A DNA stretch of 38,270 nucleotides from Escherichia phage BUCT618. Both the position numbers and the translations under genes were made by a program. Each line of letters begins with the position of its first letter. Position 1 is the stretch's first letter. Location of the stretch: the sequence record OM735461.1; one strand, 5' to 3'. Positions 3,225 to 34,275 of this stretch are shown here, one piece after another. Below the pieces are notes generated by a model. It was not told where the DNA came from and did no database searches. It saw only the letters and a list, made by a program, of their open reading frames with translations.

Positions 3225-3253
3225 ATTATCGCCCCGCAATGAAACAGTGTCAA
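3225..3253 (-). promoter_or_regulatory. Sigma70-like promoter of the packaging operon (GGTTGACAC-N17-GATAAT)
   Basis: TTGACA at 3253..3248 and GATAAT at 3230..3225. The -35 box contains the TGA stop of the upstream gene. Confidence 0.6.
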
Positions 3254-3750
3254 CCTCGGTATGATTTGATTTCACTGCGCACCCAGTTGCGGGGGATGGA
3301 GAATGTACCCATCTTCTTGCCTGATTCGGATGCCTCTTTGCACTCCAGTCTTCCATCCTCTTCTCGATACCTTGCATTGTTTACCACCTCTTTCAGCCAG
3401 AAGTCGCCATTGACTTTATGGGTGAAGGTTCGCAGTCCATCTTCGGTTGTGACATCTACGGCCATTTCTACATTGCGCAGGATGTTCACGACAGTTCTCC
3501 AGTCACGGAAGCCGTACTTCTTAACCAGGTCTATAGCGGGGATCAGGTCCGGGTCGATTTTGGTGGCTGCTTCTATGAAAGCCTGCTTATCAACCTCGGC
3601 TGACTCCTTGCGTCCTTTAACTTCACTCCGAAGTGTCCGTACTTCTGACTTAACGGATTTAAGTTCAGTGGTGAGTGATTTTACCTGCTCAATCAGCTTT
3701 TCAACATGAAGGGCCAGGTTTGCGTAGTGCGGGGTTGGTTTGCGTTTCAT
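3250..3750 (-). CDS. Hypothetical protein with N-terminal coiled coil
   Basis: ORF track 3250..3774. Start preferred at the internal ATG 3750 because of SD AAGGAG (MKRKPTPHY..). Heptad-like LIEQVKSLTTELKSVKSEVRTLRSEV. Confidence 0.6.
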   Translation of the reverse strand: MKRKPTPHYANLALHVEKLIEQVKSLTTELKSVKSEVRTLRSEVKGRKESAEVDKQAFIEAATKIDPDLIPAIDLVKKYGFRDWRTVVNILRNVEMAVDVTTEDGLRTFTHKVNGDFWLKEVVNNARYREEDGRLECKEASESGKKMGTFSIPRNWVRSEIKSYRG

Positions 3751-3780
3751 GGTTATCTCCTTAGTGTCATGCATGAGGAG

Positions 3781-4741: not shown

Positions 4742-4974
4742 ACATCTTCTCAATAATCAATATGGCGCAGGCCGCCAACCCGAAGGCAGAAGTCACCATC
4801 CGCAGCGGTGGTCATGATGCCATCATCATAACCTGGTATTGGGATGGCCAGTACCTGAACCGCAGCTATTGCAAGGCTCGAATGACCGGTCATCGCTTAG
4901 GCGAATATGAGGCGTGGAGAATTGCGTTCAATGCGGTTGCTCAGATTATGGGAGTCGTGGGGTGTGCGAAATGA
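4738..4974 (+). CDS. Hypothetical protein
   Basis: 78-aa ORF, ATGA-coupled on both sides. Confidence 0.5.
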   Translation: MNIFSIINMAQAANPKAEVTIRSGGHDAIIITWYWDGQYLNRSYCKARMTGHRLGEYEAWRIAFNAVAQIMGVVGCAK

Positions 4975-5654
4975 TTATCTGGTCACTATTTGACGGTTCA
5001 GGTCTTATGGTCAAGCCGTGGGCGGAAGCAGGACATACTTGCTATTGTTTCAACTACGACGGAGCTGACCACGGTGACTACGCACGATTGGGCGCAAAAG
5101 TTGAACATGAAAATATCCACTATATAAACGCGTGGATTGATAATAAATTCGACTTCGACGTTGCGCCGGATATTATTTTCGCGTTCCCTCCGTGCACAGA
5201 CTTAGCCGTTAGCGGCGCGTCTCATTTCGAAACGAAGCGTAAGAAGAATGCAACGTTTCAGGTAGAGGCCGTGATTACATGTAAAGTGGCGGCTCGTCTG
5301 GCTAAAAGGTACAACGTACCTTATATGATTGAGAACCCGGTTAGCGTTCTTTCGTCTTTATGGCGCAAGCCTGACTACTCGTTCAATCCGTACGAATACG
5401 GCGGCTATTTACCCGAAGACGACACGCATCCAATGTTCCCTGAATACATAAAACCACGTGACGCATACCCTAAGAAGACATGTATTTGGGCCGGTAACGG
5501 TTTTGTCATGCCTGTTAAATCATGCGTTGCCGTCGGTGACGGGTACTCAAACCAACACAATAAATTAGGCGGTAAATCAGTGAGGACAAAAACAATCCGC
5601 AGCCTGACCCCGCGCGGATTTGCCCGTGCGGTATTTGAGGCTAACAAAGGTTGA
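4971..5654 (+). CDS. Compact DNA cytosine-C5 methyltransferase-like protein
   Basis: Motif I-like SLFDGSG, motif IV-like FPPCTDLAVSG, motif VI-like MIENPVS. ATGA-coupled start at 4971 (track start 4914 is upstream and in frame). Confidence 0.6.
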   Translation: MIIWSLFDGSGLMVKPWAEAGHTCYCFNYDGADHGDYARLGAKVEHENIHYINAWIDNKFDFDVAPDIIFAFPPCTDLAVSGASHFETKRKKNATFQVEAVITCKVAARLAKRYNVPYMIENPVSVLSSLWRKPDYSFNPYEYGGYLPEDDTHPMFPEYIKPRDAYPKKTCIWAGNGFVMPVKSCVAVGDGYSNQHNKLGGKSVRTKTIRSLTPRGFARAVFEANKG

Positions 5655-7376: not shown

Positions 7377-9143
7377 ATGAAGCAGCCACGATTTTACCAA
7401 ACAGAAGCAAAGGAGGCGGTGATTCACCGCATCCGTGAGAACTCGAAGAAAGGAGTCGCCAGCAGGATACTTGTTGATGCGGCGGCTGGTGCAGGGAAAA
7501 CCATCATGATGGCGATCATTGCCAAACACGTACATGAGCGAGGAGGGCGAGTATTGCAGATTGCGCGTCAGCCAATACTTGCCGAGCAGACCTATCGTGA
7601 GTTCTATGATTTTTCAGTACCGGCGGGGATGTACGCCGCAAAGTTCAATAAGCGCCAGGTATATCAGGTTACCGTAGGCACTGAGGGCACGATTGTTAAT
7701 GGCCTTGCTGACTTCAATAAACCGGTTGATTTGCTTCTTATCGACGAATCGCATCAGGTAGACATTGAGAACGAAGACACGCAATTCATGCGCATAATCA
7801 ATCATCTGGATGGAGTTTCGAAAAAAGCCGGTCGCCTTATGCATATCGTAGGAGTAACAGGTTCTCCATTCCGTGGAACCGCCCACCTTACCACGTTCGA
7901 CTTCTGGCAGGAGGTTGTTTACGACATCGGCGTCGACCGACTGACTGAGATGGGGTTCCTGTCGGTTCCCGTCTATGGGTTCCCTGATGCTGACGATGAC
8001 TCCCTGGATTTCTCCAGCGTGGATACTCGCAGCGGCTCATGGGAGTTCAGCGAAAAGGAACTCGACGAAATCGCCATGTCTGACGCTGGAAAGAAAAAAC
8101 TTGTGCGTATTCTGATGCAGGTCATTGAAAAGACCAAAGACCGGAACCAGCGGATAGTCTTTGCATCGACCAAGCGACACGCCAGGGAGATTCGGCGAAT
8201 CCTCATCGCACTGGGCATCGACAAGTCAAAGATTGGCCTTGTCACTGACGATTCCAGCGAGGCGGAGAAAGACCGCGTAATCAAGCTATCGAAGGAAGGA
8301 AAACTCGACTGGCTGATTAACGTGTCGGTGCTGACTACTGGCTTTAACTCGCCACTGATTGACGTGGTTGTTTACCTGCGCCCGATTGGTTCACTGGTGT
8401 TACTGATTCAGTCTATGGGGCGCGGCGCTCGCTTGCTTGAGGAGTGGATGAAAGAGGCCGGTTTCCATAAAGATAACTATCTGGTTCTGGACTATGCCGG
8501 AGTATTCGACAGGCTTGGGCATTTGCTGGACGACCCGCTTACAGGTGCGGCACTAGCGGAAAAAGGGCGCAAGTCAGGGAAAACAAAGTTATGCCAGCGT
8601 GAAGGTTGCGGGTGCGAAAACGGAATAGGCGCTCGGCGCTGTATCGCAAAGGATCCATCAGAACCTGATGGAAGGTGCTCGTTCTTCTGGGTTTCGCAAA
8701 CATGCCCAGACTGCGGAACAGAAAACGATATAGCAGCTTCTGAGTGCCGCAATCCGAAGTGCAAGCGTGAACTGCGTGACCCTAACAAAGAGCTTTTGCA
8801 TTCCCCATATTCTGATGACCAGCTTGTTGAGGTTAAATCATGGGAGATTACGCCAGCAGAAAACGGAAATGGCATCATGGTTAAGTTCAATCTTAAGGAT
8901 GAGCCAGAGCACGGCAACCCGGTTGTTTTTTATCCCACCGATAGCGAAGGGGCTAAGCGAATAACAATGAAACAGTTCATTGAGGTCTACTGCAGGAATC
9001 CTCGATGGCATCCAGAGTTTAAAGCGCAATTAAATCCACGTGGAATCATGAAATTAAAGCAGGCGTTAACCATGCCATCGCATATCTCTTACCGGATTAA
9101 CGGGCAAAACAAATTTGTTATCGGAAGAAGGCGCTTCTCATGA
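7377..9143 (+). CDS. Superfamily-2 DNA helicase (ResIII/DEAD-like) with C-terminal Cys-rich region
   Basis: Walker A AAAGAGKT, DESH box, helicase-C-like QSMGRGAR. Cys clusters CQREGCGC / CPDCG / CRNPKC. Confidence 0.8.
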   Translation: MKQPRFYQTEAKEAVIHRIRENSKKGVASRILVDAAAGAGKTIMMAIIAKHVHERGGRVLQIARQPILAEQTYREFYDFSVPAGMYAAKFNKRQVYQVTVGTEGTIVNGLADFNKPVDLLLIDESHQVDIENEDTQFMRIINHLDGVSKKAGRLMHIVGVTGSPFRGTAHLTTFDFWQEVVYDIGVDRLTEMGFLSVPVYGFPDADDDSLDFSSVDTRSGSWEFSEKELDEIAMSDAGKKKLVRILMQVIEKTKDRNQRIVFASTKRHAREIRRILIALGIDKSKIGLVTDDSSEAEKDRVIKLSKEGKLDWLINVSVLTTGFNSPLIDVVVYLRPIGSLVLLIQSMGRGARLLEEWMKEAGFHKDNYLVLDYAGVFDRLGHLLDDPLTGAALAEKGRKSGKTKLCQREGCGCENGIGARRCIAKDPSEPDGRCSFFWVSQTCPDCGTENDIAASECRNPKCKRELRDPNKELLHSPYSDDQLVEVKSWEITPAENGNGIMVKFNLKDEPEHGNPVVFYPTDSEGAKRITMKQFIEVYCRNPRWHPEFKAQLNPRGIMKLKQALTMPSHISYRINGQNKFVIGRRRFS

Positions 9144-17044: not shown

Positions 17045-17733
17045 CAGTTAAGCCACCCGTTAATTTTTTTAGCTCCCCATTCACCAGATTGCAGAAGCCA
17101 TGATTTCGACTTCTCTGGCGTAGCTGCGCCAACCTTCTTACCTGCGGCGTTAATCTGTCCTGCGGTATTCGATTTCTTGCCAACATCCTTTTTAGGGGCC
17201 ATCTTCTTAGACCCGCCATTTTTGTTGTCACTCATTGCACTGGCAGGAACCTGAGTGGTTCTCGCTGAGATGATGTTGATGCCAGTCAGCGTGGCGGTGA
17301 AGAATAGCGCGTCACTGGTCGTCAGGTCACGATTGACGGTAATGGGACCATCAAAGAACATATTCTTATAAGTTCCGAGCGATGTCACCAGCGTAAAAGG
17401 CTCGCGCATCTTGCGAATCTCATGCAGCTTGGCGAGCTTGTCCTCCCAAGTGCTCATAGTGGACGGGGTAAATCCGTCGTCCAGTGCTGACTGCACAAGC
17501 TCAATCCCCTTATTCAGTAGCGACTGGTCAGTGAAAATCCCCTGAATGGTCACGCTGTCAGGCTCGATCAGGATGTTATCAGAGATTGTCGCCCCGTCCT
17601 GCACTGGCTTGCGGGTGATGGTGTGGTTAAACGTATGTGTTTCAACCTGAGTCACATCAATCGGAATGACTGAAATCTGGTTATAGTCACTGCCAAACAG
17701 CTTTCTCAGTACGCCGGGTTCGAAAATAAGCAT
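17044..17733 (-). CDS. Tail-associated protein downstream of the tape measure
   Basis: 229-aa ORF. Its ATG (17733-17731) shares one base with the tape-measure TGA stop (17735-17733), reading ATGA on the minus strand. Basic C-terminus. Confidence 0.45.
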   Translation of the reverse strand: MLIFEPGVLRKLFGSDYNQISVIPIDVTQVETHTFNHTITRKPVQDGATISDNILIEPDSVTIQGIFTDQSLLNKGIELVQSALDDGFTPSTMSTWEDKLAKLHEIRKMREPFTLVTSLGTYKNMFFDGPITVNRDLTTSDALFFTATLTGINIISARTTQVPASAMSDNKNGGSKKMAPKKDVGKKSNTAGQINAAGKKVGAATPEKSKSWLLQSGEWGAKKINGWLN

Positions 17734-19298
17734 CAGTATTTAACCCCCGTATCAGTTCCTTTCACTCTTGATGCGTTGTCTCTTCGTAGCTCCTGTCGTA
17801 TAGCCTGTGCAGTTGCTACCGGATTTTCAGCGCCATTGACAATAATCTCGCCAACTGTTGTGTTCCCGCTGTTAGTGGTAATGACGTTTGCTCTACCGGC
17901 ATTAGCTTGTGCCAGTCCCTGAGCCATTGTCGGCGGCGCAATAACAGTATTTCCTGGAATATCTAACTGCCGGTTTGCGCCTTTTACTATTTCCGCATAA
18001 CCCGGGATGCGCTCATGACCTGGAATATCAGGCTGTAGGTTGCTTTGTGTTCTATAATTCCTGTTTGGATTGTACGACCCGCCAGACAATGACGTCATAA
18101 GTTCCTGCATCCATTCAGGCATGGAGTTGTAAATGGCTTTGTCTATCCTTCCCAGCGCACCGATGATGTAATCAACAAGCCCGTCCCATATACCCCTTAT
18201 GCTGGTGTCCATTCCTTTGAAACTTTCAATTATGCGCCCTGTAACTGAGTCTCCGCCGGTGAAGTAGGTATATACATCCTGTATGGCAAGAATGAGCGCG
18301 CCGATTGCAAGTCCTACCAGCGCAGGACCAGCAGCAGCGGCAGCCCACGCCAGCAATGCACCTGCTCGCATTGTGGCGAATGCCGTTGTTAGCGCATTGG
18401 TTAGCGCGATTAGTTTTGCCCATGACGCGATTGCAGCAGAGCCAACCAGGTAAGGCATGGCAATAGCTGCAGCTATGCCCAGGTATTTGATGGAGGCAAT
18501 GAGACCTTTAATCGCAGCGGTAAGGCCATTAACTATCTCATCGCCGTGAAGGTCGAAAAACTCCTTCATCTGGCGTGTTATTCGCGTGAATATCGGCAGC
18601 AGGTTAGAGGCTACGATATTCCATAGTCCTTTGATACGCGCCTGTAACAAGTCCATTTCACGGGTATATTCCCGCGCCATGTCGATGTTTTCCTGGCTAA
18701 TTACCAGCCCGGATTCTCGCGCCTGCTTCTGAAGTGCCGCGATTTTTTCGGATGTCTGCGCAAAAAATTCACCGCCAACATCTGCAAGCCCGCCACCGAA
18801 AAGGGCATCAGCAAGGAATTGCCGCTTGCCCTGCTCTTTAACCTCGCTCAGTTTATTCCTGACAAGCCTAAAAAGCCCTTCGATATTGTTGCCGTACTGT
18901 TTGACCTGGGCCTGCGTGATGCCGATTTCGCCAAACGCATCAGCATTAGCCTTACCGTCAAGCGCAAACTCGCCAGCACGCATCGACAGCTCTTTCATGC
19001 CATCAGCAAGCTGGTCTTGCTCAATACCGAATGATTTTGCGGCGAAGGCGGTGGCCTGGAACGCCTCAGCGTTGACGTTCAGGCGCTTGGTTAACTGGTC
19101 AATCTCTGTTGCTGTATTGGCAAAGTCATTAACCATCGCATAAGCCGCACCGGTGACCGCTGTGGCCGCCGATGCTGCAATGGTGATAAGACCAGCCATA
19201 ACCTTAGTGACGTCCTTAACGGACTGCTCGGCATCGTTAAATGAAGCATCATCAACATCGAGGCCGATGTAACCCAAAAGCTCAGTGACAAATGCCAT
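17733..19298 (-). CDS. Tail tape measure protein
   Basis: 521 aa, Ala/Gly-rich with hydrophobic central helices (AAIAMPYLVGSAAIASWAKLIALTNALTTAFATM..). Follows the frameshifted chaperone. Confidence 0.8.
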   Translation of the reverse strand: MAFVTELLGYIGLDVDDASFNDAEQSVKDVTKVMAGLITIAASAATAVTGAAYAMVNDFANTATEIDQLTKRLNVNAEAFQATAFAAKSFGIEQDQLADGMKELSMRAGEFALDGKANADAFGEIGITQAQVKQYGNNIEGLFRLVRNKLSEVKEQGKRQFLADALFGGGLADVGGEFFAQTSEKIAALQKQARESGLVISQENIDMAREYTREMDLLQARIKGLWNIVASNLLPIFTRITRQMKEFFDLHGDEIVNGLTAAIKGLIASIKYLGIAAAIAMPYLVGSAAIASWAKLIALTNALTTAFATMRAGALLAWAAAAAGPALVGLAIGALILAIQDVYTYFTGGDSVTGRIIESFKGMDTSIRGIWDGLVDYIIGALGRIDKAIYNSMPEWMQELMTSLSGGSYNPNRNYRTQSNLQPDIPGHERIPGYAEIVKGANRQLDIPGNTVIAPPTMAQGLAQANAGRANVITTNSGNTTVGEIIVNGAENPVATAQAIRQELRRDNASRVKGTDTGVKY

Positions 19299-19839
19299 TA
19301 GTCGGCCTCATAAAGTGATTCGTTGATTCTGCGATTAATCTCAGCTTCGACGTGAAGTGATTCGCAGCAGTCCAGGAACATTTGATAAGTCCATTTGTTC
19401 AGTACGTCATCCGGGCTTGCATAGTATGCTTTGGCTACGCGCATCACCGCCGCCATCTCATCAGAGTATGACGGCTGGATGTCACGCGTGTAAATCAGCT
19501 TTCCGCCGACCCTGAGTTCTCCGCCATCTTGCGTTGAAACATAGCGGTCGCCTTCCCCAAAAAACTTGGGTACATCTCCTTGACGTAAGCAAAGAAAACG
19601 GTATCGGCAAGGTCAATCTGGCCTTCAAAGAATTTGTCGAAATCAAGCGGCTGGTTATCGACTTCCGCGCCGTTCAGCATAGATTTTAGCAGTTCGTACT
19701 GCTCATCGCCTTGCAGTTTTCCCTGATAGGTCAGCGCCGCGATGTTCATCAGCTTGGCCTGAATGCGGAAGCCTTCGCGTGTGGTTGGCATGACTACGCT
19801 GAAAGTGTGTTCGCCTGCTTTGATGTCTTTGAGTTGCAT
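19298..19839 (-). CDS. Tail assembly chaperone, -1 frameshift-extended (GT-like) product
   Basis: Slippery heptamer T TTT TTG at 19564..19558. The -1 frame is open from there to the TAA at 19300..19298, which overlaps the tape-measure ATG (TAATG). Confidence 0.65.
19495..19839 (-). CDS. Tail assembly chaperone (short, G-like product)
   Basis: 114-aa ORF directly upstream of the tape measure. SD GGAG. Confidence 0.7.
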   Translation of the reverse strand: MQLKDIKAGEHTFSVVMPTTREGFRIQAKLMNIAALTYQGKLQGDEQYELLKSMLNGAEVDNQPLDFDKFFEGQIDLADTVFFAYVKEMYPSFLGKATAMFQRKMAENSGSAES

Positions 19840-19866
19840 GGTATGTCTCCGTGTTTGGTTGACATA

Positions 19867-19876
19867 ATTATAACAC
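19867..19876 (-). promoter_or_regulatory. Extended -10 promoter (TGTTATAAT) for the chaperone/tape-measure/baseplate operon
   Basis: Reverse complement reads ccgTGtTATAATtatg, about 28 nt upstream of the ATG at 19839. It lies immediately after the terminator at 19892-19911. Confidence 0.55.
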
Positions 19877-19891
19877 GGAGGGAGGGGAATG

Positions 19892-19911
19892 AAAAAAGCC
19901 CCGTTAGGGGC
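19892..19911 (-). terminator. Rho-independent terminator ending the accessory island
   Basis: Minus strand GCCCC-taac-GGGGC followed by TTTTTT, directly after the stop at 19912. Confidence 0.75.
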
Positions 19912-20160
19912 CTAGAATTTCACTACTTTTGCTGATTTCACATTTGGTGGGTCAAAGTCAGGTACAAATATTGGCATCCAGTGGGTTGCTTCCCTTATGA
20001 CATATCCACCTATCTCCTTGAATCTTGGCCTGGAGAATCTTTCTGTCCCTGCTCTTTTACTGACCTCATATATGCAAAATGGCTGAATGTATGCGCCATT
20101 AAAAACGTGAACTATTTCCCCAACGGCAGGCAATCTCTCACTGCACTTAATCCATTCCAT
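19912..20160 (-). CDS. DUF551-like protein
   Basis: MEWIKCSERLP.. signature N-terminus of DUF551 phage proteins. Confidence 0.65.
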   Translation of the reverse strand: MEWIKCSERLPAVGEIVHVFNGAYIQPFCIYEVSKRAGTERFSRPRFKEIGGYVIREATHWMPIFVPDFDPPNVKSAKVVKF

Positions 20161-20163
20161 CAG

Positions 20164-20292
20164 TCAACCCTCATCTTCATAATCAGAAAAACACTTAGCA
20201 GAAAGGTTATCCCCATCGCAAAGCGTTGCTTTCCCGTACACCTCAAATATCCATTTTGCAAAATCCAGCGTAAATTCGTCATATGCTGTCAT
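20164..20292 (-). CDS. Hypothetical 42-aa protein (below the ORF-track cutoff)
   Basis: MTAYDEFTLDFAKWIFEVYGKATLCDGDNLSAKCFSDYEDEG. ATGA coupling with the upstream gene. Its stop lies 3 nt before the next ATG. Confidence 0.45.
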   Translation of the reverse strand: MTAYDEFTLDFAKWIFEVYGKATLCDGDNLSAKCFSDYEDEG

Positions 20293-20588
20293 TTCTTCAC
20301 CCCATACTTACGGTTAATATCATACTCACTGGTACACAGCAGGATAATGAACTCGATAAACGCAACGAAAAAGGTGATTCCAGTCCAGCAGAACAGAATG
20401 TACATCACCCCGGAAAACGGTCGCCCCAGGTAGAAGCGGTGAATGCCAATAAAACCGAAGAAGAAGCAAAGCAGCACCGCGGTAACTTTGCTCTTCGTGT
20501 AAACCTGTTGCTTCGCGCCGCAGTTAGGGCAATCGGTCGCTGATTCGTGGATTTGTGTGCCGCAAGCGCGGCAGTAAGTGTTGCTCAT
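20289..20588 (-). CDS. Zinc-ribbon + TM2-domain membrane protein
   Basis: CRACGTQ..CPNCG zinc ribbon, followed by two hydrophobic helices with GIHRFYLG (TM2-domain signature). Confidence 0.7.
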   Translation of the reverse strand: MSNTYCRACGTQIHESATDCPNCGAKQQVYTKSKVTAVLLCFFFGFIGIHRFYLGRPFSGVMYILFCWTGITFFVAFIEFIILLCTSEYDINRKYGVKK

Positions 20589-20824
20589 TTACCCTCCCAT
20601 GATATGTATTTTGCGTGAAGTTTGTTTCTCATTTCCTGTAAATGAAATTCTGGAACTGTTACAAAGTGCTCACTGTTATCGTCTCCCTCTGGTATGAACT
20701 CAAAAAGAACGCCGTCAATCCATCTCATGGTTGCCGACCAAATCTGTCCATTGTGGCACCAAATTGAAACAAACTGACCACTGCCGGGAAGTTCATCAAG
20801 AAAATCAATTGTGCTTTCAGTCAT
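20585..20824 (-). CDS. Hypothetical protein
   Basis: 79-aa ORF, ATGA-type coupling downstream. Confidence 0.5.
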   Translation of the reverse strand: MTESTIDFLDELPGSGQFVSIWCHNGQIWSATMRWIDGVLFEFIPEGDDNSEHFVTVPEFHLQEMRNKLHAKYISWEGK

Positions 20825-20854
20825 TTGTTAACCCTCGTAAAAACAGACCCATCA

Positions 20855-20881
20855 CTAAGCGCGGCAGTAGATGTTGCTCAT
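20855..20881 (-). pseudogene. Truncated 5' remnant (MSNIYCRA*) of a paralogue of the zinc-ribbon/TM2 gene
   Basis: ATGAGCAACATCTACTGCCGCGCTT differs at two positions from the start of the gene at 20588 (ATGAGCAACACTTACTGCCGCGCTT). It has its own SD-like GGGTGA. Confidence 0.5.
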
Positions 20882-20897
20882 TTTAATCACCCTTGTA

Positions 20898-21161
20898 TCA
20901 AATTTTACCTTCAGCCATCAGCCCTTCGACTAATGTCATTTTATAAGTCGCAGGCTTCCATGACTGCATTGCCCTTTCAGCGCCTTTGCGTGTTTTGTAA
21001 GGCTTAATGGATGGAACTATAGCGCTCACAACCCCCTGCCCATAACCTCTGTCTGTCTCCTGGAACACCCTGAAAAAGCCGGAGTCTTCTTTGACAACGA
21101 GTCGTTTAAAGGCATAAACACCAGTATCTTTGTTTAGGTAACGGCTAAGTATGATTTCCAT
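20898..21161 (-). CDS. Hypothetical protein, first gene of the accessory island
   Basis: 87-aa ORF, SD AAGGAG. Confidence 0.55.
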   Translation of the reverse strand: MEIILSRYLNKDTGVYAFKRLVVKEDSGFFRVFQETDRGYGQGVVSAIVPSIKPYKTRKGAERAMQSWKPATYKMTLVEGLMAEGKI

Positions 21162-21344
21162 GATTACTCCTTGTGGTGTTATTGGTGGGGTGGCGTGCTT
21201 CGTCGGTAGCCTCGGTTAAGTAACCGCACTAGCGTTCTCCGTTTCCGGTAGTGTGTGCGTTCTGGCCTCACGGTTGGGAATCCTGACACTACGATCAAGC
21301 CCCTGCGTTGCTCCTCTCCTGCTGCATCCTGCCGCCTCCCTATG
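21162..21344 (-). promoter_or_regulatory. Long GC-rich structured 5' leader (candidate cis-regulatory RNA / leader-peptide attenuator)
   Basis: About 180 nt between a strong promoter and the first island gene. Contains a GNRA hairpin CCG-GAAA-CGG and hairpin CGGTT-ACTT-AACCG. Pairings GTAGTGT/ACACTAC and CACTA/TAGTG are mutually exclusive. A 10-codon ORF with a good SD sits at 21327..21295. Confidence 0.4.
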
Positions 21345-21350
21345 TGTTGA

Positions 21351-21378
21351 ACTATACACCACATTTCTATTGTGTCAA
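21351..21378 (-). promoter_or_regulatory. Strong sigma70-like promoter (GGTTGACAC-N16-TATAGT)
   Basis: TTGACA at 21378..21373 and TATAGT at 21356..21351, immediately after the tail-tube terminator. Confidence 0.65.
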
Positions 21379-21391
21379 CCATTACATGCGT

Positions 21392-21411
21392 AAAAAAGGG
21401 GCCGAAGCCCC
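21392..21411 (-). terminator. Rho-independent terminator after the tail tube gene
   Basis: Minus strand GGGGC-ttcg-GCCCC followed by TTTTTT. Confidence 0.75.
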
Positions 21412-21418
21412 AATTTGT

Positions 21419-21832
21419 TTAATCCAGTGCCTGACCTGTATGGATGATATAGCCATCCACAAACTTGAAGGTGAATTGCACGATGGTTAACTCCTGCGCC
21501 TTCACCAGGGCCGGAGGCCGCGCCAGCATCGCCTCTTTTGCGCCGGCAACCTCGCCAGTGCTGTTTCGGTCAATCAACAGGAGTGGCAGCGGTTTGCCAG
21601 CCTCATAAAGCGCCTGCCATGCCGCCTTTGTCGGGCTTACGTCCTGCAAGGAGACAACGCAAGTGCCTGTTTTATCAAGGGATTTGACGAAAGCGCCACC
21701 ACCTTTAATGGAAGCGTAGGTGTTCCAGATGTCATTGTTAAATGTAAAGTTGAACATCTCGCCATTGGCTACAGCTCTTGCCGCCACTCCGCCCCAGCTT
21801 AATGTAACTTTCTCAGGGTTATAAATTGGCAC
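21419..21832 (-). CDS. Tail tube protein
   Basis: 137-aa ORF directly downstream of the sheath gene. Assigned by synteny. Confidence 0.7.
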   Translation of the reverse strand: MPIYNPEKVTLSWGGVAARAVANGEMFNFTFNNDIWNTYASIKGGGAFVKSLDKTGTCVVSLQDVSPTKAAWQALYEAGKPLPLLLIDRNSTGEVAGAKEAMLARPPALVKAQELTIVQFTFKFVDGYIIHTGQALD

Positions 21833-21834
21833 GA

Positions 21835-23307
21835 TTAGATACCCCCAATTGACCAGGTGCCGCGAACAACCCAGCCATCAATGGCGGAGTTTAGCGTTGC
21901 CTGATATACGTCGTTAAATGTTGCCTGACCGGATTTACGCACAGACGCAGGAATGCTGTCAGGGTCTGGCAGTGATACGGTGTAATCTTCCAGGATAATA
22001 CGGCGGTCTACCGCTCTCTCCAGCCACTCACGAATCAGCGCTTCAGCATCCGTGAACGTTTCTTCGTCGAATGCCATCAGCGGCGTGCGGAATGCGTAAT
22101 TCGCCAGGCTTGCCTGCAGATTGTTATCGAACCAGTCTGCACCCCACTGAATACGGATTTCCCTGTCGGTACAGGTGCGCCCTTTGAACAGGTGCGTGAA
22201 CGTTGTATTCGTGAATGTTTCCACGAAGTTGTAACCCTTAGCCCGAAGGTTATTCTGCTCTGTTGGGCTTAATCCTGAGTCGCTGGCGGTGGTCAGGGTT
22301 TTATAATCCCACTGCTGAGCGCCCGGGTCAGTCCAGAGCATTCGACCAAGAATCGCAGCGTCAGGACGCTGACCGGTCATGTCCACACCATTAACCACGC
22401 CAGTGGGGTGATAGATTACTGACGACCGCTCCATGCTGGTATTGCGCAACTGATAGCCGATGTCACTCGTTGCAGTGTTAAGCACAGCATTTTGGTCGGT
22501 AGTCATGAACATGGCCTGAGCCTTGTTCTCCGTGCTTGACTGAACCCATGCTGCGATTGTTTTCTGGTCTGCAATAGCATCAGCATTAACGCCAGCGTAA
22601 GCGTAGAAATAAGCGTTTCCACCACGTGAGTAGAAATCATTCATGACATCAGGGAATGACTCGCCAGTGGTTTGAGCGGTTCCGGTAGTTGACACCGAGC
22701 CAGCAGATGTTGCCAGTTTCATCGCCTGCGACAGAGCGGTATCTCCGCCAGTGATGGTGACGCTTGATGCGCTGCCAGTTGTCGCAGAGGTTACGATAAA
22801 TTGCGCGGTTCCTGCCGCCCATGCAACGGTGGCCACAGGCGTGGTCTTGTTGTTAAGCGCGGTAGCAACGTCATCCATAGAAGCGACACTGGAAAGGTCA
22901 ACTCCAGTAATGGCCTTTGGCGTGCCGTCGATGGTCAGGCTCATGGCACCATCACTAATGCCGGTGAATTTTGCCAGCGCCTGCTCTTCAGAAGAAAGCA
23001 CGCCGCCGGTGAGTTTGCCAGCAGTTGCCGGAGTGTTTAAGGCGGTCTTGTTCCAGTAAATCACTGCAACGTCAGCAGGCGCGCCACCTTCCTGCGAGAA
23101 GTGGGTTTGCAGCCACTTGAACTCAACAGGATGCGACACCGCATCAACCTCGTCAGCATAGGAGTCAGGGGTGAGGATGCGATAACGCTCACCGCTGAAT
23201 AAATCGTTTGTTGTTATAAAGCCTGCGCGGTTCAGCACATCGACAGTGGCTACTTTATCGTTCAGCAGCGTATCGACCGCGAAACGGCGGCGAATCGGAG
23301 TAGGCAT
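21835..23307 (-). CDS. Contractile tail sheath protein
   Basis: 490 aa, upstream of the tube gene. The conserved C-terminal half resembles DUF3383-type sheath proteins (from memory). Confidence 0.75.
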   Translation of the reverse strand: MPTPIRRRFAVDTLLNDKVATVDVLNRAGFITTNDLFSGERYRILTPDSYADEVDAVSHPVEFKWLQTHFSQEGGAPADVAVIYWNKTALNTPATAGKLTGGVLSSEEQALAKFTGISDGAMSLTIDGTPKAITGVDLSSVASMDDVATALNNKTTPVATVAWAAGTAQFIVTSATTGSASSVTITGGDTALSQAMKLATSAGSVSTTGTAQTTGESFPDVMNDFYSRGGNAYFYAYAGVNADAIADQKTIAAWVQSSTENKAQAMFMTTDQNAVLNTATSDIGYQLRNTSMERSSVIYHPTGVVNGVDMTGQRPDAAILGRMLWTDPGAQQWDYKTLTTASDSGLSPTEQNNLRAKGYNFVETFTNTTFTHLFKGRTCTDREIRIQWGADWFDNNLQASLANYAFRTPLMAFDEETFTDAEALIREWLERAVDRRIILEDYTVSLPDPDSIPASVRKSGQATFNDVYQATLNSAIDGWVVRGTWSIGGI

Positions 23308-28145: not shown

Positions 28146-28991
28146 TCAGAACTCAATTACATTACTTGCGTAGCAGCGGCAGTTTATTGCCTGCCCTGGA
28201 AAAGTATCGCGAGCACCAGCACCATCTGACCAGTTATACGTCTTGCCGTTACGCGCATAGTGCGATGGTTTGGCTTTCGGGTATCGGCCTGATGGGTTTC
28301 CTCGCACCCGCTGGTCTTCCATCGTGCGCCATACGAATTGCTTGATTTCCAGGTCTGCCGCACGTTGCTTTGTTACCTGCATATTCATAGTGGCGACCTG
28401 GTCACGGGCAATCAGGTCGGCGCGTCGTTTAGCAACCCCGGTTTCGGCCCGAATGTTTTTGCTGATGTCGCGCCATGACAGGCCATCGCGAAATCCAGAG
28501 TTAACGGCAGTTGTAATCTTGCTCAGGTAGCTTTGCGTCAGATTGGTAATCAGCGCAGTATTTTCCTCAGCCCATGCGTCAATATTTGCGCTCATGTCAG
28601 TTCCTGGCAATGCCACGTTGACGCCAATGGCCTGGTTGATTGCTTTCTGCCAGTTACCATCAATTGCCGAACGAATAGAATCGCCAATGTTGCGCACGAA
28701 TGACAGTCCCGGAATATTACCCGTTGCCAGTGAGCGAATAGCTCGCAGAACAGCAGACAGGTCATCAACCCGATAACCATCCTCACGCGCCGCAATCTCT
28801 GCTTTTAATTCATCAGCGATGCGGGTTTTCAGCTCGGCATTAATGCCGTCAATGATGCCGCGCAGCATCTTCGCGTACTGCTGTTCAATCCGTACAGGGT
28901 GACGGGCTGGCAGCAGAACCTTACGCTTCCGCTTGTCAGGCTTCAGTGCTTCCAGTTGTTTCTGAAATTCCGTTTGTGCCATTTTCGCCAC
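28146..28991 (-). CDS. Head morphogenesis protein (SPP1 gp7 / Mu F family)
   Basis: C-terminal ..FPGQAINCRCYA signature. Follows the portal gene and overlaps its 3' end. Confidence 0.75.
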   Translation of the reverse strand: MAKMAQTEFQKQLEALKPDKRKRKVLLPARHPVRIEQQYAKMLRGIIDGINAELKTRIADELKAEIAAREDGYRVDDLSAVLRAIRSLATGNIPGLSFVRNIGDSIRSAIDGNWQKAINQAIGVNVALPGTDMSANIDAWAEENTALITNLTQSYLSKITTAVNSGFRDGLSWRDISKNIRAETGVAKRRADLIARDQVATMNMQVTKQRAADLEIKQFVWRTMEDQRVRGNPSGRYPKAKPSHYARNGKTYNWSDGAGARDTFPGQAINCRCYASNVIEF

Positions 28992-30303
28992 CGAGTGAGT
29001 TAAGACCTAACGGATCCTGTTCTTCTTCATCCTCCGGCAATTCTTCCAGCGAGAACAGGCCAGTATCGTTGGCCAGATTGCGCACCTCGTTAGGCGTGAG
29101 CGCAGCAGATTGCTCAAGCGTTGAAATTGCCGTCGCTACCGATGCCATCGAGGTTGCTTTCTTGTCTGGTGACATCGCACTAAGTTCTGCCCACCGCCAG
29201 TCGAAGTCCAGTCCGGTCTGCATCTTCACGTTATCAATGCATGACTGCACCAGCGCAGACGGATCGCCTTCCTGAATCGCGGCAATCTTGTCGTAGTAAA
29301 CCGACAGGATTTCCTCCTGGCTGGCATTCAGCCCTGCAGGAGATTTCCCGAACAGCATCATTTCGGAAAGGCCAGTCGCGCCAGCTACCGCAGTGGCAAA
29401 GCGGTCAACGAAGTCGGGGATTCCCTGGAGTGATCGGTTAACGAACTCGAATGACTCTTCCTTATCGACAACCGCCGCCCGGTAGATTGACTTACCCTGG
29501 TTGAAGGCGTTTGCACGGTTCATTACTGCCTGCGATGCCGTCATCCCCATTGATTGCGCAGCTGTCAGGTTAGGCACGGAAAGAATGCCAACCCCTGACT
29601 CTTTCAGCAGGAATGAAGCATCCTGTAATGTCTCGTTGTATGCGGCAATTGCCGACCATGCCATCGCAACATAAGAGCCACCCCATCCCTGCAGTTCAAT
29701 CTGGGTATCGTAAGGAACCGGGCAGCCATAGAAAGGCGCAATGCGGTCGCGGTGATACGTCACGCCGTTGCGAGCCACATAATTCAGTGCACGCCCATAA
29801 TGCGGGGACTCAGGGTCAAGGTCGATTTCATCAACACTTAATGACCAGCGGTCGAGCGGCACCAGGTCAATGATGGCCGCCGTTTCTGATGGGGGTGATT
29901 CTGGCGGGCGAGAATCGTCGTAAACCTTCAGCACGCCAGCACCACCGAACAGGCGTGACCAGGCGATACCCTTGCGAACTGCCGCGCGCAGACCAATCTC
30001 ATCAAGCATGGTTTCAACGCGCTTTTTGTCCTCACCATCCAGACCGGTGATTTCGATAAACTTGCGTGTCGCATCCTCTGCGGGGAGGTCGCAGATTTTA
30101 CGCGCCAGCCAGTCCGACAAATAGATGTTAGTCAGCACCTGCTGATTGTTGTGCATCAGGTGCGCAAATGCAGGAGACAGAACTTGCCCGAGGCTCTTGT
30201 CGATGCCAGGAATACCCTGCCCGGATATTGGGTTAGCCCACGCATCAACGCGGTAAGACATGCTGCCGTCATTATGCAGCTTGAGGTGGGGCTTCTTAGC
30301 CAT
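28936..30303 (-). CDS. Portal protein (DUF1073-type)
   Basis: 455 aa, first gene of the head module, acidic C-terminus. SD GAGGGA. Confidence 0.75.
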   Translation of the reverse strand: MAKKPHLKLHNDGSMSYRVDAWANPISGQGIPGIDKSLGQVLSPAFAHLMHNNQQVLTNIYLSDWLARKICDLPAEDATRKFIEITGLDGEDKKRVETMLDEIGLRAAVRKGIAWSRLFGGAGVLKVYDDSRPPESPPSETAAIIDLVPLDRWSLSVDEIDLDPESPHYGRALNYVARNGVTYHRDRIAPFYGCPVPYDTQIELQGWGGSYVAMAWSAIAAYNETLQDASFLLKESGVGILSVPNLTAAQSMGMTASQAVMNRANAFNQGKSIYRAAVVDKEESFEFVNRSLQGIPDFVDRFATAVAGATGLSEMMLFGKSPAGLNASQEEILSVYYDKIAAIQEGDPSALVQSCIDNVKMQTGLDFDWRWAELSAMSPDKKATSMASVATAISTLEQSAALTPNEVRNLANDTGLFSLEELPEDEEEQDPLGLNSLGGENGTNGISETTGSTEA

Positions 30304-30386: not shown

Positions 30387-30463
30387 TGGCGCACACGGAC
30401 GGATTTGAACCTTCAATCAGCCGATTATAAGTCGGTTGCTTTAACCAATTAAGCTACGCATGC
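30387..30463 (-). tRNA. tRNA with anticodon UAU (Ile, AUA codon), CCA encoded
   Basis: Manual cloverleaf. Acceptor GCAUGCG/CGUGUGC (two G-U pairs). D arm GCUU/AAGC with GG in the loop. Anticodon loop C-U-UAU-A-A. T loop UUCAAAU. One A-C mismatch and one A-G mismatch in the stems. Confidence 0.8.
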
Positions 30464-33527: not shown

Positions 33528-33751
33528 TGGATATTGACGTAGTTAACCATCCATCGCACTACACTAAGGGCAGAATCGAGTGCATTGATGCCATTGATTC
33601 AGCCACCACCGGAAAATCAGGAATCGAAGCCGTATGCGTGGCAAATATCATTCGTTACCTGTGGCGCTACGAAGAAAAAGGTGGCCTTGAAAGTGTAAGG
33701 AAGGCGCAGTGGTATCTTAACAAATTAATCTCTGAACTGGAGTCAAAATAA
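33527..33751 (+). CDS. DUF3310-like protein
   Basis: NHPSHYT..IECIDAI...[21 protein letters not shown]. Confidence 0.65.
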
Positions 33752-34275
33752 TGGCATCGAGAGGCGTTAACCGTGTAACAATCCTGGGCAACCTCGGCAA
33801 TGACCCGGATGTAAAATACACCGCATCAGGAAGCGCAATCGCAAACCTGACGGTGGCAACATCTGAGTCATGGAATGACAAGGCAACCGGTGAGAAGAAG
33901 GATTTGACCGAATGGCATCGCGTCGTGCTGTTCGGCAAACTGGCAGAGGTGGCAGGTGAATACCTCCGAAAAGGTTCGCAAGTCTATATTGAAGGCCAGC
34001 TTCGAACCCGCAAATGGACCGACCAATCCGGCCAGGAGAAATACACCACAGAGATTGTTGTCGGCATGAATGGGGTGATGCAGATGATTGGCGGAAAGCA
34101 GGATAGCAAGCCTCAGCAACAAAGCGGATGTGGGCAGCCTCAACAACCAAAGCCGCAGCAGCAGAGCAAGCCAGCACCAGCCGGGCATAATGTTCCTCCA
34201 GTGGACTTTTCTGACGACATTCCGTTCGCTACCATTGGTTTGCAGTACGGGAAATCGAGAATCTACGCCCTATAA
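33751..34275 (+). CDS. ssb: Single-stranded DNA-binding protein
   Basis: [58 protein letters not shown].. with a Gln/Pro-rich linker and an acidic DDIPF tail motif. Confidence 0.9.

Follow-up and report, generated by a model that had tools for sequence, protein, structure and literature searches.

Morons, the accessory genes of lambdoid and other tailed phages, carry their own promoter and terminator between genes that are adjacent in a relative, and the promoter-early stem-loops (PeSLs) of T4-type phages are short promoter-plus-hairpin units, present in many copies per genome, that precede the variable small open reading frames (ORFs) of hyperplastic regions. At the level of the nascent transcript, the closest described systems are the put RNA of phage HK022, which consists of two hairpins spanning ~70 nt, and the Bacillus EAR element, which has an Rfam entry. 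A large virus screen has also catalogued more than 10,000 candidate structured RNAs (csRNAs) from IMG/VR (PMC10690425). Here we consider a locus of Escherichia phage BUCT618 (record OM735461.1), the whole 38,270-nt stretch of which is referred to as the window: an accessory-gene island that separates the tail tube gene from the tail chaperone gene and is headed by a structured leader RNA with relatives in otherwise dissimilar phages.

An earlier note on this DNA had assigned the island a leader of about 180 nt, taken as a plain 5' untranslated region (UTR). The length holds (~183 nt from the predicted +1, at ~21343, to the ATG at 21161), whereas the plain UTR gives way to a conserved structured RNA. 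When the 2.6-kb region containing the island (19300-21900) was compared by megablast with 50,697 phage records, only ~21360-21174 was matched, in 31 records at 83-96% identity and mostly in unannotated intergenic DNA. The matched phages are Alux-21 and Bas97 (unclassified in the records), Salmonella phage PT1 and Enterobacter phage Arya (both Jilinvirus), IME279 and sortkaff (both Sortsnevirus), Serratia MQ-4, Pseudomonas phage Motto and a set of ~50-kb T1-like phages, including JK16, which is classified as Warwickvirus. With a Dhillonvirus copy as the query, 171 records were retrieved, mainly Dhillonvirus-type phages of ~44 kb. The family is carried by Dhillonvirus, Jilinvirus, Sortsnevirus, Warwickvirus, Changchunvirus, other Drexlerviridae and the PY100-like myovirus lineage to which the window phage belongs, and carriers of RNAs within this identity range share essentially nothing else at the nucleotide level. 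For instance, the leader of the window myovirus is 96.5% identical to that of PT1. Judging by these comparisons, the RNA family moves horizontally among virulent enterobacterial phages.

With a covariance model of the RNA, the window and four complete carrier genomes each give a single match. No protein is common to all five genomes, the only shared ORFs being those that overlap the element, in different frames. A Dcm-like methyltransferase (4914-5654, plus strand), a helicase (7377-9143, plus strand) and an SSB protein (33751-34275, plus strand) each have counterparts in three of the four other carrier genomes, with 26-62% amino-acid identity over the comparisons listed, which suggests gene exchange within a common enterobacterial phage pool.

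The leader RNA is absent from 5,426 complete Escherichia coli genomes. Among 185,579 species genomes there is one true match, a 42.8-kb contig that carries a copy nearly identical to the Sortsnevirus one and is probably a mis-binned phage genome; a second candidate, from Syntrophomonadaceae, was rejected as a chance 20-mer. In 241 million metagenome records, 14 contigs contain the leader, most of them 39-52 kb long, in the size range of phage genomes, and three being fragments of 1-9 kb; they yielded relatives of the window phage and no new RNA lineage. Searches of Rfam 15 with the copies from the window and five other lineages place no family on the element, either at the gathering threshold or at E<=10. 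In the literature, searches for exact strings, Dhillonvirus RNA, phage structured-RNA screens, T1-like genomes and KpAvs2/Ksap1 found no description of it. Ksap1, from the KpAvs2/Ksap1 paper, was considered and rejected, as it lies elsewhere in the genome.

The first ~155 nt of the island transcript are predicted, from covariation, to form a closed multi-helix RNA. A six-helix nested structure was derived by hand, a covariance model (R1) was built and 31 copies were realigned; the model matches the window at 21173-21346 with 178.9 bits. All coordinates are window positions, and the island and the genes from sheath to tape measure lie on the minus strand. The leader is organized as follows:

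21188-21343, minus strand: conserved structured RNA, ~155 nt, supported by the covariance model, covariation and identity to phage records
21340-21333 with 21195-21188, minus strand: helix P1, joining both ends of the RNA
21332-21324, minus strand: P2 hairpin, with GGA in its loop
21314-21310 with 21210-21205, minus strand: long-range helix Pa
21303-21276, minus strand: P3
21259-21255 with 21229-21225, minus strand: P4
21251-21237, minus strand: P5 hairpin, GNRA type
21162-21187, minus strand: G-poor, C/A-rich tail CACCAAUAACACCACA, then the Shine-Dalgarno sequence AAGGAG (21172-21167) and the first ORF

Compensatory changes occur in four helices. P4 takes the forms CGCAC/GUGCG, CUAUC/GAUAG, CAUUGG/CCAAUG, CCAGGU/ACCUGG, CCUGGU/ACCAGG and CCCGGU/ACCGGG, and all five of its pairs are compensatory, with up to five pair types; in P5, which is mostly GNRA-capped (CCG-GAAA-CGG, GCC-GAAA-GGC, CUC-GAAA-GAG), four of five are. 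Pa is either GGAGC/GCUACC or GGGGC/GCCACC, an A-U to G-C switch (16:13), and in P3 of KMI8 a G:C pair is replaced by A:U. Standard pairs fill 87% of the cells, compared with 76% in shuffles and at most 51% when partners are slid, and the covariation score of 0.283 was reached by none of 500 shuffles, slid partners giving at most 0.064. The P1 and P2 helices of Dhillonvirus are out of register in the realigned set; in a separate duplex calculation, P1 is re-formed from different sequences in every lineage (GGGCGGCG/CGCCGCCC, GACGGGC/GCCCGUC, GACGGGUG/CACCUGUC, GUCGAC/GUCGAC, GAGACGG/CCGUCU and UGAGGCG/CGCCUUA). P3 has invariant G-U pairs, and others occur in P1 and P4; read from the opposite strand these would become A-C, so the functional strand is the sense one. 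A core of ~50 nt is almost invariant across unrelated phages, and the unpaired purine-rich strands GGAGA, AACGCA, AACCGUGA and CGACGAAG are near-invariant. P4 was missed by RNAalifold when run on a MAFFT alignment, owing to register shifts, and single-sequence folds were inconsistent; both problems were resolved by the hand-derived structure together with the covariance model. An all-against-all column scan for extra pairs and pseudoknots was swamped by lineage-coupled changes, the sole plausible addition being one pair that extends P4. AGGA/CAGGA motifs, which resemble CsrA/RsmA-type binding sites, are invariant in the P2 loop (21324-21332) and recur in P3 (CAGGAU, 21281-21285), and a hand count gives seven GGA triplets in the ~155-nt RNA.

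In all of ~8 independent contexts, the RNA lies between a promoter and a ribosome-binding site (RBS), and in none of them was it found with its own terminator, antisense, promoterless, inside an operon or in a 3' UTR. In each lineage, the conserved start of the RNA is preceded, at a distance of 6-8 nt, by the end of a sigma-70-like -10 hexamer, and several lineages also have a -35 hexamer (the promoters of the other lineages were read by eye, and a scan confirmed the one in Oekolampad, L031). In sequence, the promoters differ from one lineage to the next. The placement of the -10 hexamer suggests that the RNA begins at +1, with no more than three unpaired 5' nucleotides. At the other end, most lineages have the G-poor tail ACC(A/U)...UAAC after P1. 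Here the sequence N-C-C-A/U (21183-21187 in the window) appears in most lineages as ACCA, GCCA or ACCU and is followed by an A/U-rich stretch. Of 32 distinct contexts, 29 of them scored, 23 have the first start codon 34-43 nt (mode 41) past the invariant CGACGARG.

The first ORFs behind the RNA are unrelated between lineages. The RNA heads a 13-kb replication operon in Dhillonvirus, is placed after the primase terminator in Jilinvirus-type phages, lies among early small ORFs in Warwickvirus and heads the tail-operon island in the window phage. Homologues 85% identical to the 60-aa ORF that comes first in JK16 are present in ~140 Klebsiella phage records. In the one record inspected, that of the Webervirus PKP126, the gap upstream of the homologue is 58 nt and the covariance model finds no RNA there. 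In a single record, that of Klebsiella phage Roth72 (L054, 1308-1493), the homologue is annotated as 'anti-RM protein stp1'; no paper supporting the 'Stp1 anti-RM' annotation was found. Should it be right, the RNA would head an anti-defence gene in Warwickvirus.

A T1-type 21-nt repeat of Drexlerviridae, ATAGCACnnnTTGnTAAAA, has been described (PMC11447400). It lies directly upstream of the -10 hexamer that drives the RNA in L004 (~2455-2500) and L030 (~2440-2480), and also upstream of RNA-less homologous units in Rogunavirus Jk06 (L053, 1215-1240 and 1418-1440), a distribution that fits a promoter-associated element. Several GenBank coding sequences (CDSs) overlap the RNA, namely, bas18_0048 of Oekolampad (L031, 3035-3748), Bas97_0052 (L002, 3063-3182) and, on the opposite strand, QIG65642.1 of PT1 (L003, 2990-3196). 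These are probably mis-calls, and the true start of bas18_0048 is likely to be the ATG 41 nt past CGACGAAG, giving a protein of 177 rather than 237 aa.

Taken together, the comparisons establish the leader as a mobile, structured and promoter-attached RNA that is independent of the identity of its cargo. The strict promoter-RNA-RBS arrangement in ~8 contexts argues for a role in cis, and the near-invariant core, combined with the lack of a common phage protein, points to a conserved host partner. We consider it probable that the locus combines an accessory cassette with a structured RNA that acts as a cis, host-factor-binding leader. Transcription by host RNA polymerase would begin at ~21343, probably at an early stage and without dependence on the late tail promoter; once folded, the nascent RNA would bind a conserved host component and thereby serve in cis as an all-purpose 5' module ensuring that the genes behind it are expressed, whichever they are. 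Cis mechanisms as a class are somewhat favoured over the rest. Within the class, our preferred candidate, still a tentative one, is a put/EAR-like modification of the elongating polymerase that would allow read-through of downstream terminators; 5'-end protection and ribosome loading are weaker alternatives. In Oekolampad, a Dhillonvirus (MZ501095), co-oriented terminator-like hairpins lie after the first ORF (a strong one, 35749-35730) and 6 kb further on (29607-29591), with no strong promoter between the two hairpins of the replication operon, and similar hairpins are found downstream in the Jilinvirus-type phage Alux-21 (locus 4854-4871) and in the window (19913-19896).

Several observations weigh against this proposal. 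Folded alone, the sequence has a minimum free energy no better than its shuffles (z=-0.06), and the covariation comes from ~8 lineages counted on an alignment that had been fitted to the model. The +1, the RNA as a species and its stability are all predictions. The architecture of the leader is unlike that of HK022 put. The island ends with a terminator followed by a fresh promoter, as would be expected if termination worked there, and this sits poorly with a polymerase that ignores terminators. As evidence, downstream terminators carry little weight, since many phage operons have them. The constant distance to the start codon could simply mean that an ordinary 35-40-nt leader received the RNA at its +1, and homologous ORFs in Webervirus manage without it.

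The strongest competitor to the cis-acting leader, albeit an unlikely one, is a stable RNA acting in trans, for example against host defence or by titrating a host protein as a decoy or sponge, that would be released from the transcript by cleavage in the A/U-rich tail. Such a species would be consistent with the pairing of the 5' and 3' ends in P1, which leaves almost no unpaired 5' nucleotides, and the ACC(A/U) followed by an A/U-rich stretch is reminiscent of a tRNA acceptor end and its 3' trailer, in which RNase E cuts. The AGGA in the P2 loop of all lineages, with its likeness to CsrA-type sites, also counts in its favour. The accessory distribution of the RNA, which in Warwickvirus precedes an ORF whose 85% identical Webervirus homologue lacks it, and the very recent horizontal transfer indicated by the PT1 copy fit the same explanation. 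However, in all ~8 independent contexts the RNA lies between a promoter and an RBS, and in none does it have its own terminator, lack a promoter or occupy a 3' UTR. Furthermore, ARAGORN predicts no tRNA or tmRNA on the element, where no cloverleaf was found, and the CCA-like tail is not universal, being ACCU in Dhillonvirus and ACAA in Arya; only the terminal helix and the ACCA-like tail resemble an acceptor end. T4 rnaC and rnaD were also considered as relatives and rejected as unrelated. The only ARAGORN call in the window is a tRNA-Ile(UAU), reading AUA, at 30387-30463 (minus strand), which in the order of transcription lies just upstream of a 455-aa ORF (28936-30303) with a weak match to portal proteins.

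Less probable still is a riboswitch aptamer that senses a small molecule reporting the state of the host and controls the downstream ORFs. The leader resembles riboswitch aptamers and orphan candidates in its 5' UTR location, its aptamer-like size, the closure by P1 of multi-stem junctions with near-invariant unpaired strands and a conserved fold backed by covarying helices, but it differs from them in being confined to phages, in lacking an expression platform and in preceding genes that are unrelated between lineages. Indeed, most lineages have no terminator stem after P1, the linker to the Shine-Dalgarno sequence is G-poor and unstructured, the Shine-Dalgarno sequence itself is exposed ~15-20 nt beyond P1, and no Rfam riboswitch family matches even at the relaxed threshold (E<=10).

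In the window, the leader heads a cassette between the tail genes. Promoters and terminators in the following list were called by consensus match rather than from mapped transcript ends:

21835-23307, minus strand: sheath gene (DUF3383 and phrog_205)
21419-21832, minus strand: tail tube gene (phrog_280)
21398-21411, minus strand: intrinsic terminator hairpin of the tube gene, GC-rich GGGGCTTCGGCCCC then TTTTTT, with the T-run extending to ~21392
21351-21378, minus strand: island sigma-70 promoter, TTGACA-16-TATAGT, 11/12 matches, predicted +1 at ~21343-21344
20898-21161, minus strand: o87, variable cargo ORF of 87 aa (phrog_27467, no known function)
20857-20883, minus strand: remnant of a TM2 gene, a duplicated TM2 5' end that closes with a stop, recognized as a direct repeat
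20585-20824, minus strand: o79, variable cargo ORF of 79 aa (phrog_6314)
20289-20588, minus strand: Zn-ribbon and TM2 membrane protein, 99 aa, constant cargo (PF05154, E=2.8e-18; Zn_ribbon, E=3.7e-5)
20164-20292, minus strand: o42, 42 aa, of doubtful coding status, with no Pfam or PHROG family, inserted at the junction between the TM2 stop and the DUF551 start
19912-20160, minus strand: DUF551 protein, 82 aa, constant in position and divergent in sequence (PF04448, E=1.6e-9)
19896-19913, minus strand: island terminator, AGGCCCCTAACGGGGCTT and a T-run, conserved in the relative L016
19867-19895, minus strand: extended -10 promoter before the chaperone gene, TTTTCA-17-TG-TATAAT, 10/12 matches, identical in L016
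19495-19839, minus strand: tail chaperone gene, assigned from weak TAC matches (Pfam, PHROG) and position
17733-19298, minus strand: tape measure gene

A 52-aa ORF lies between the chaperone-position gene and the tape measure. The tube terminator, promoter, five small ORFs, gene remnant, terminator and extended -10 promoter that the earlier note had described are all present within a few bases of where it had placed them, and its assignments of Zn-ribbon plus TM2 and of DUF551 agree with the domain matches listed. In a consensus scan of the whole window, two candidate promoters with at least 11/12 matches were found, compared with 0.44 expected by chance; the other one is TTGACA-17-GATAAT at 3225-3253 (minus strand, first hexamer from 3253), within or near a 174-aa minus-strand ORF (3250-3774). 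The G+C fraction of the cargo ORFs is ~0.41-0.48, with 0.54 in one window of the TM2 gene, versus mostly 0.50-0.57 in the flanking tail genes. PADLOC found no defence-system match among the five island proteins.

The predicted truncated remnant proved to be real: it forms with the start of the TM2 gene (20564-20590) a 27-nt direct repeat with 93% identity and a spacing of 293 nt, and over ATGAGCAACATCTACTGCCGCGCTT it matches exactly the TM2 start of L016. This repeat, which brackets o79, has the appearance of a recombination scar.

Close, uncultured relatives of the window phage (L016, L039, L041, L035 and L034) were recovered by scans for the leader pattern; L034 was left out of the comparison, and L039 covers the island only in part. 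Contigs of ~39-40 kb from several metagenomes closely match the window phage (L016, L034, L039 and L041). Where covered, the tube and chaperone proteins of L016, L039, L041 and L035 are 93-99% identical to those of the window. In L016, the borders of the island are base for base as in the window, that is, terminator, promoter and leader on one side and terminator and promoter on the other, the tube terminator being identical as well.

Between the same borders, four different cargo sets were read. In the window, the RNA is followed by o87, the TM2 remnant, o79, TM2, o42 and DUF551; in L016 by a 55-aa ORF (phrog_35278), TM2 and DUF551 (64 aa), with the same order in L039 over the part covered; in L041 by a 117-aa DUF551 protein, o79, TM2 and DUF551; and in L035 by TM2 straight after the leader, ORFs of 93 and 138 aa, and DUF551. 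The o87 ORF is absent from L016, L035 and L041 and has 60-68% identical homologues in 57 unrelated phages. A 77% identical copy of o79 occupies the same place in L041, and none is present in L016 or L035. The TM2 protein is kept in L016, L039 and L041 (95% identity) and in L035 (59%), and island-terminal DUF551 ORFs of 64-75 aa are found in L016, L041 and L035. The junctions between cargo genes fall at start/stop overlaps. For instance, o42 sits between ATGAC and GGAATGG, which are contiguous in L016, where the o42 stretch is missing and the DUF551 ATG overlaps the TM2 stop. These patterns indicate that cargo is reshuffled by recombination at gene-boundary microhomologies, which makes the locus a recombination hot spot, and the leader, Zn-ribbon/TM2 and DUF551 form the conserved core of the cassette.

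The closest sequenced isolates are distant, with sheath identities of 54% (PY100-like Yersinia phages) and ~50% (Vibrio phage 13VT501A), and the phage collection includes no cultured member of the window phage's lineage. The earlier note had suggested comparing the tube-chaperone junction among relatives. In 13VT501A, a chaperone-position gene directly follows the tube gene, then come a 45-aa ORF and the tape measure, without an island; in the PY100-like Yersinia phages, a single unrelated 146-aa ORF separates tube and chaperone. Island and RNA are thus absent from the distant relatives and the closer ones carry different cargo. The fixed borders and exchangeable cargo amid 93-99% identical tube and chaperone genes support the previous interpretation of the island as a moron-like accessory cassette within the tail operon. 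We infer that the cargo proteins (Zn-ribbon/TM2, DUF551 and the variable small ORFs) may be accessory host-interaction factors; the earlier note had named the TM2 protein as a candidate for superinfection exclusion. The leader, the only part of the island searched for in E. coli genomes, has no match there, and the window showed no integrase, although none was systematically searched for; the phage therefore looks virulent.

The same genes in all relatives would have pointed instead to conserved tail components, and on this count the comparison favours an accessory cassette, o87, o79 and o42 being variable, with the reservation that TM2 and DUF551 occur in all four islands read. This constancy speaks against the cassette reading to the extent that the two genes may not be dispensable and may have a lineage-specific role. 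Nevertheless, the island is very unlikely to serve tail morphogenesis, whether by encoding tail-associated proteins or as an insulator that sets the stoichiometry of sheath and tube relative to chaperone and tape measure. Such a role could account for the retention of TM2, DUF551 and the terminator/promoter pairs in the window, L016, L041 and L035, and the terminator after the tube gene would indeed lower the expression of the downstream tail genes. However, the variable ORFs come and go between phages with nearly identical tail genes, the Vibrio relative does without the island, the o87, TM2 and DUF551 families are spread over unrelated phages with no structural annotation, and a consensus sigma-70 promoter would be atypical of late structural genes.

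Finally, the possibility that the conserved block is not an RNA but a small protein gene, or acts at the level of DNA as an origin of replication or a site bound by protein, is hardly tenable: short CDSs are annotated over it in Bas97, PT1 and Oekolampad, it adjoins primase and helicase genes in Jilinvirus and Dhillonvirus and it contains a GATC site, but the annotated ORFs are on different strands or in different frames and indels of 1-2 nt separate the lineages, which argues that the block is not coding, while compensatory helix substitutions, the retained GNRA tetraloop, the strand preference of the G-U pairs, the loss of GATC in KMI8 through its compensated G:C to A:U change and the location in the window within a tail operon, far from replication genes, all favour RNA.

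The cassette is an ordinary, if well documented, plastic accessory locus in a tail operon, and the leader is the more important of the two; what is new is a moron headed by an uncatalogued RNA module. It is quite possible, if somewhat short of probable, that the leader represents a new class of phage-specific structured RNA, a mobile 5' module at host-type promoters that hijacks a conserved host machine. Candidates for this machine are RNA polymerase, the ribosome, an enzyme of RNA processing or, via the ACCA end, a tRNA-handling enzyme or defence nuclease. If this is true, one module would govern the entire replication operon of Dhillonvirus and, in the window phage, an accessory island. Dhillonvirus is represented in the BASEL model collection, where Bas18 carries the RNA at the head of its entire replication operon, and a function there would affect the early programme run by host RNA polymerase. 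Should the leader turn out to be an antiterminator made of RNA alone, a module aimed at the ribosome or an RNase, or a decoy against host defence, it would be a new gene-expression tool and a compact part for synthetic biology. The carriers include cultured, genetically tractable phages, namely, Bas18 Oekolampad, Bas97 and JK16.

In comparison with described systems, the leader is the same kind of object as the csRNA candidates of IMG/VR, that is, a covariation-supported phage RNA motif upstream of genes, and it may be among the anonymous candidates of that catalogue, which gives no analysis of function or context for such a motif (PMC10690425). With HK022 put and Bacillus EAR, it shares the promoter-proximal position in the nascent RNA, the lack of an evident dedicated phage protein, heterogeneous downstream genes and terminators within the same operon; however, it resembles them neither in sequence nor in architecture, no Rfam match to EAR is found on the element, and antitermination here is a prediction. 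Like a T4-type PeSL, the island begins with a promoter-bearing module before variable small ORFs and shuffles its cargo via short repeats at gene boundaries, but its RNA is present in a single copy per genome, and conservation lies in a complex RNA fold downstream of +1 rather than in the promoter, which is not conserved between lineages. The closest likeness in layout is to the morons of lambdoid and other tailed phages, with which the island has in common its own promoter and terminator, a place between genes that are adjacent in a relative, a base composition that departs from the flanks and a content that varies among close relatives. It differs from them as a multi-gene unit with a conserved core (TM2 and DUF551) plus shuffling inserts, headed by a conserved structured RNA of ~155 nt that is foreign to the classical description of a moron.

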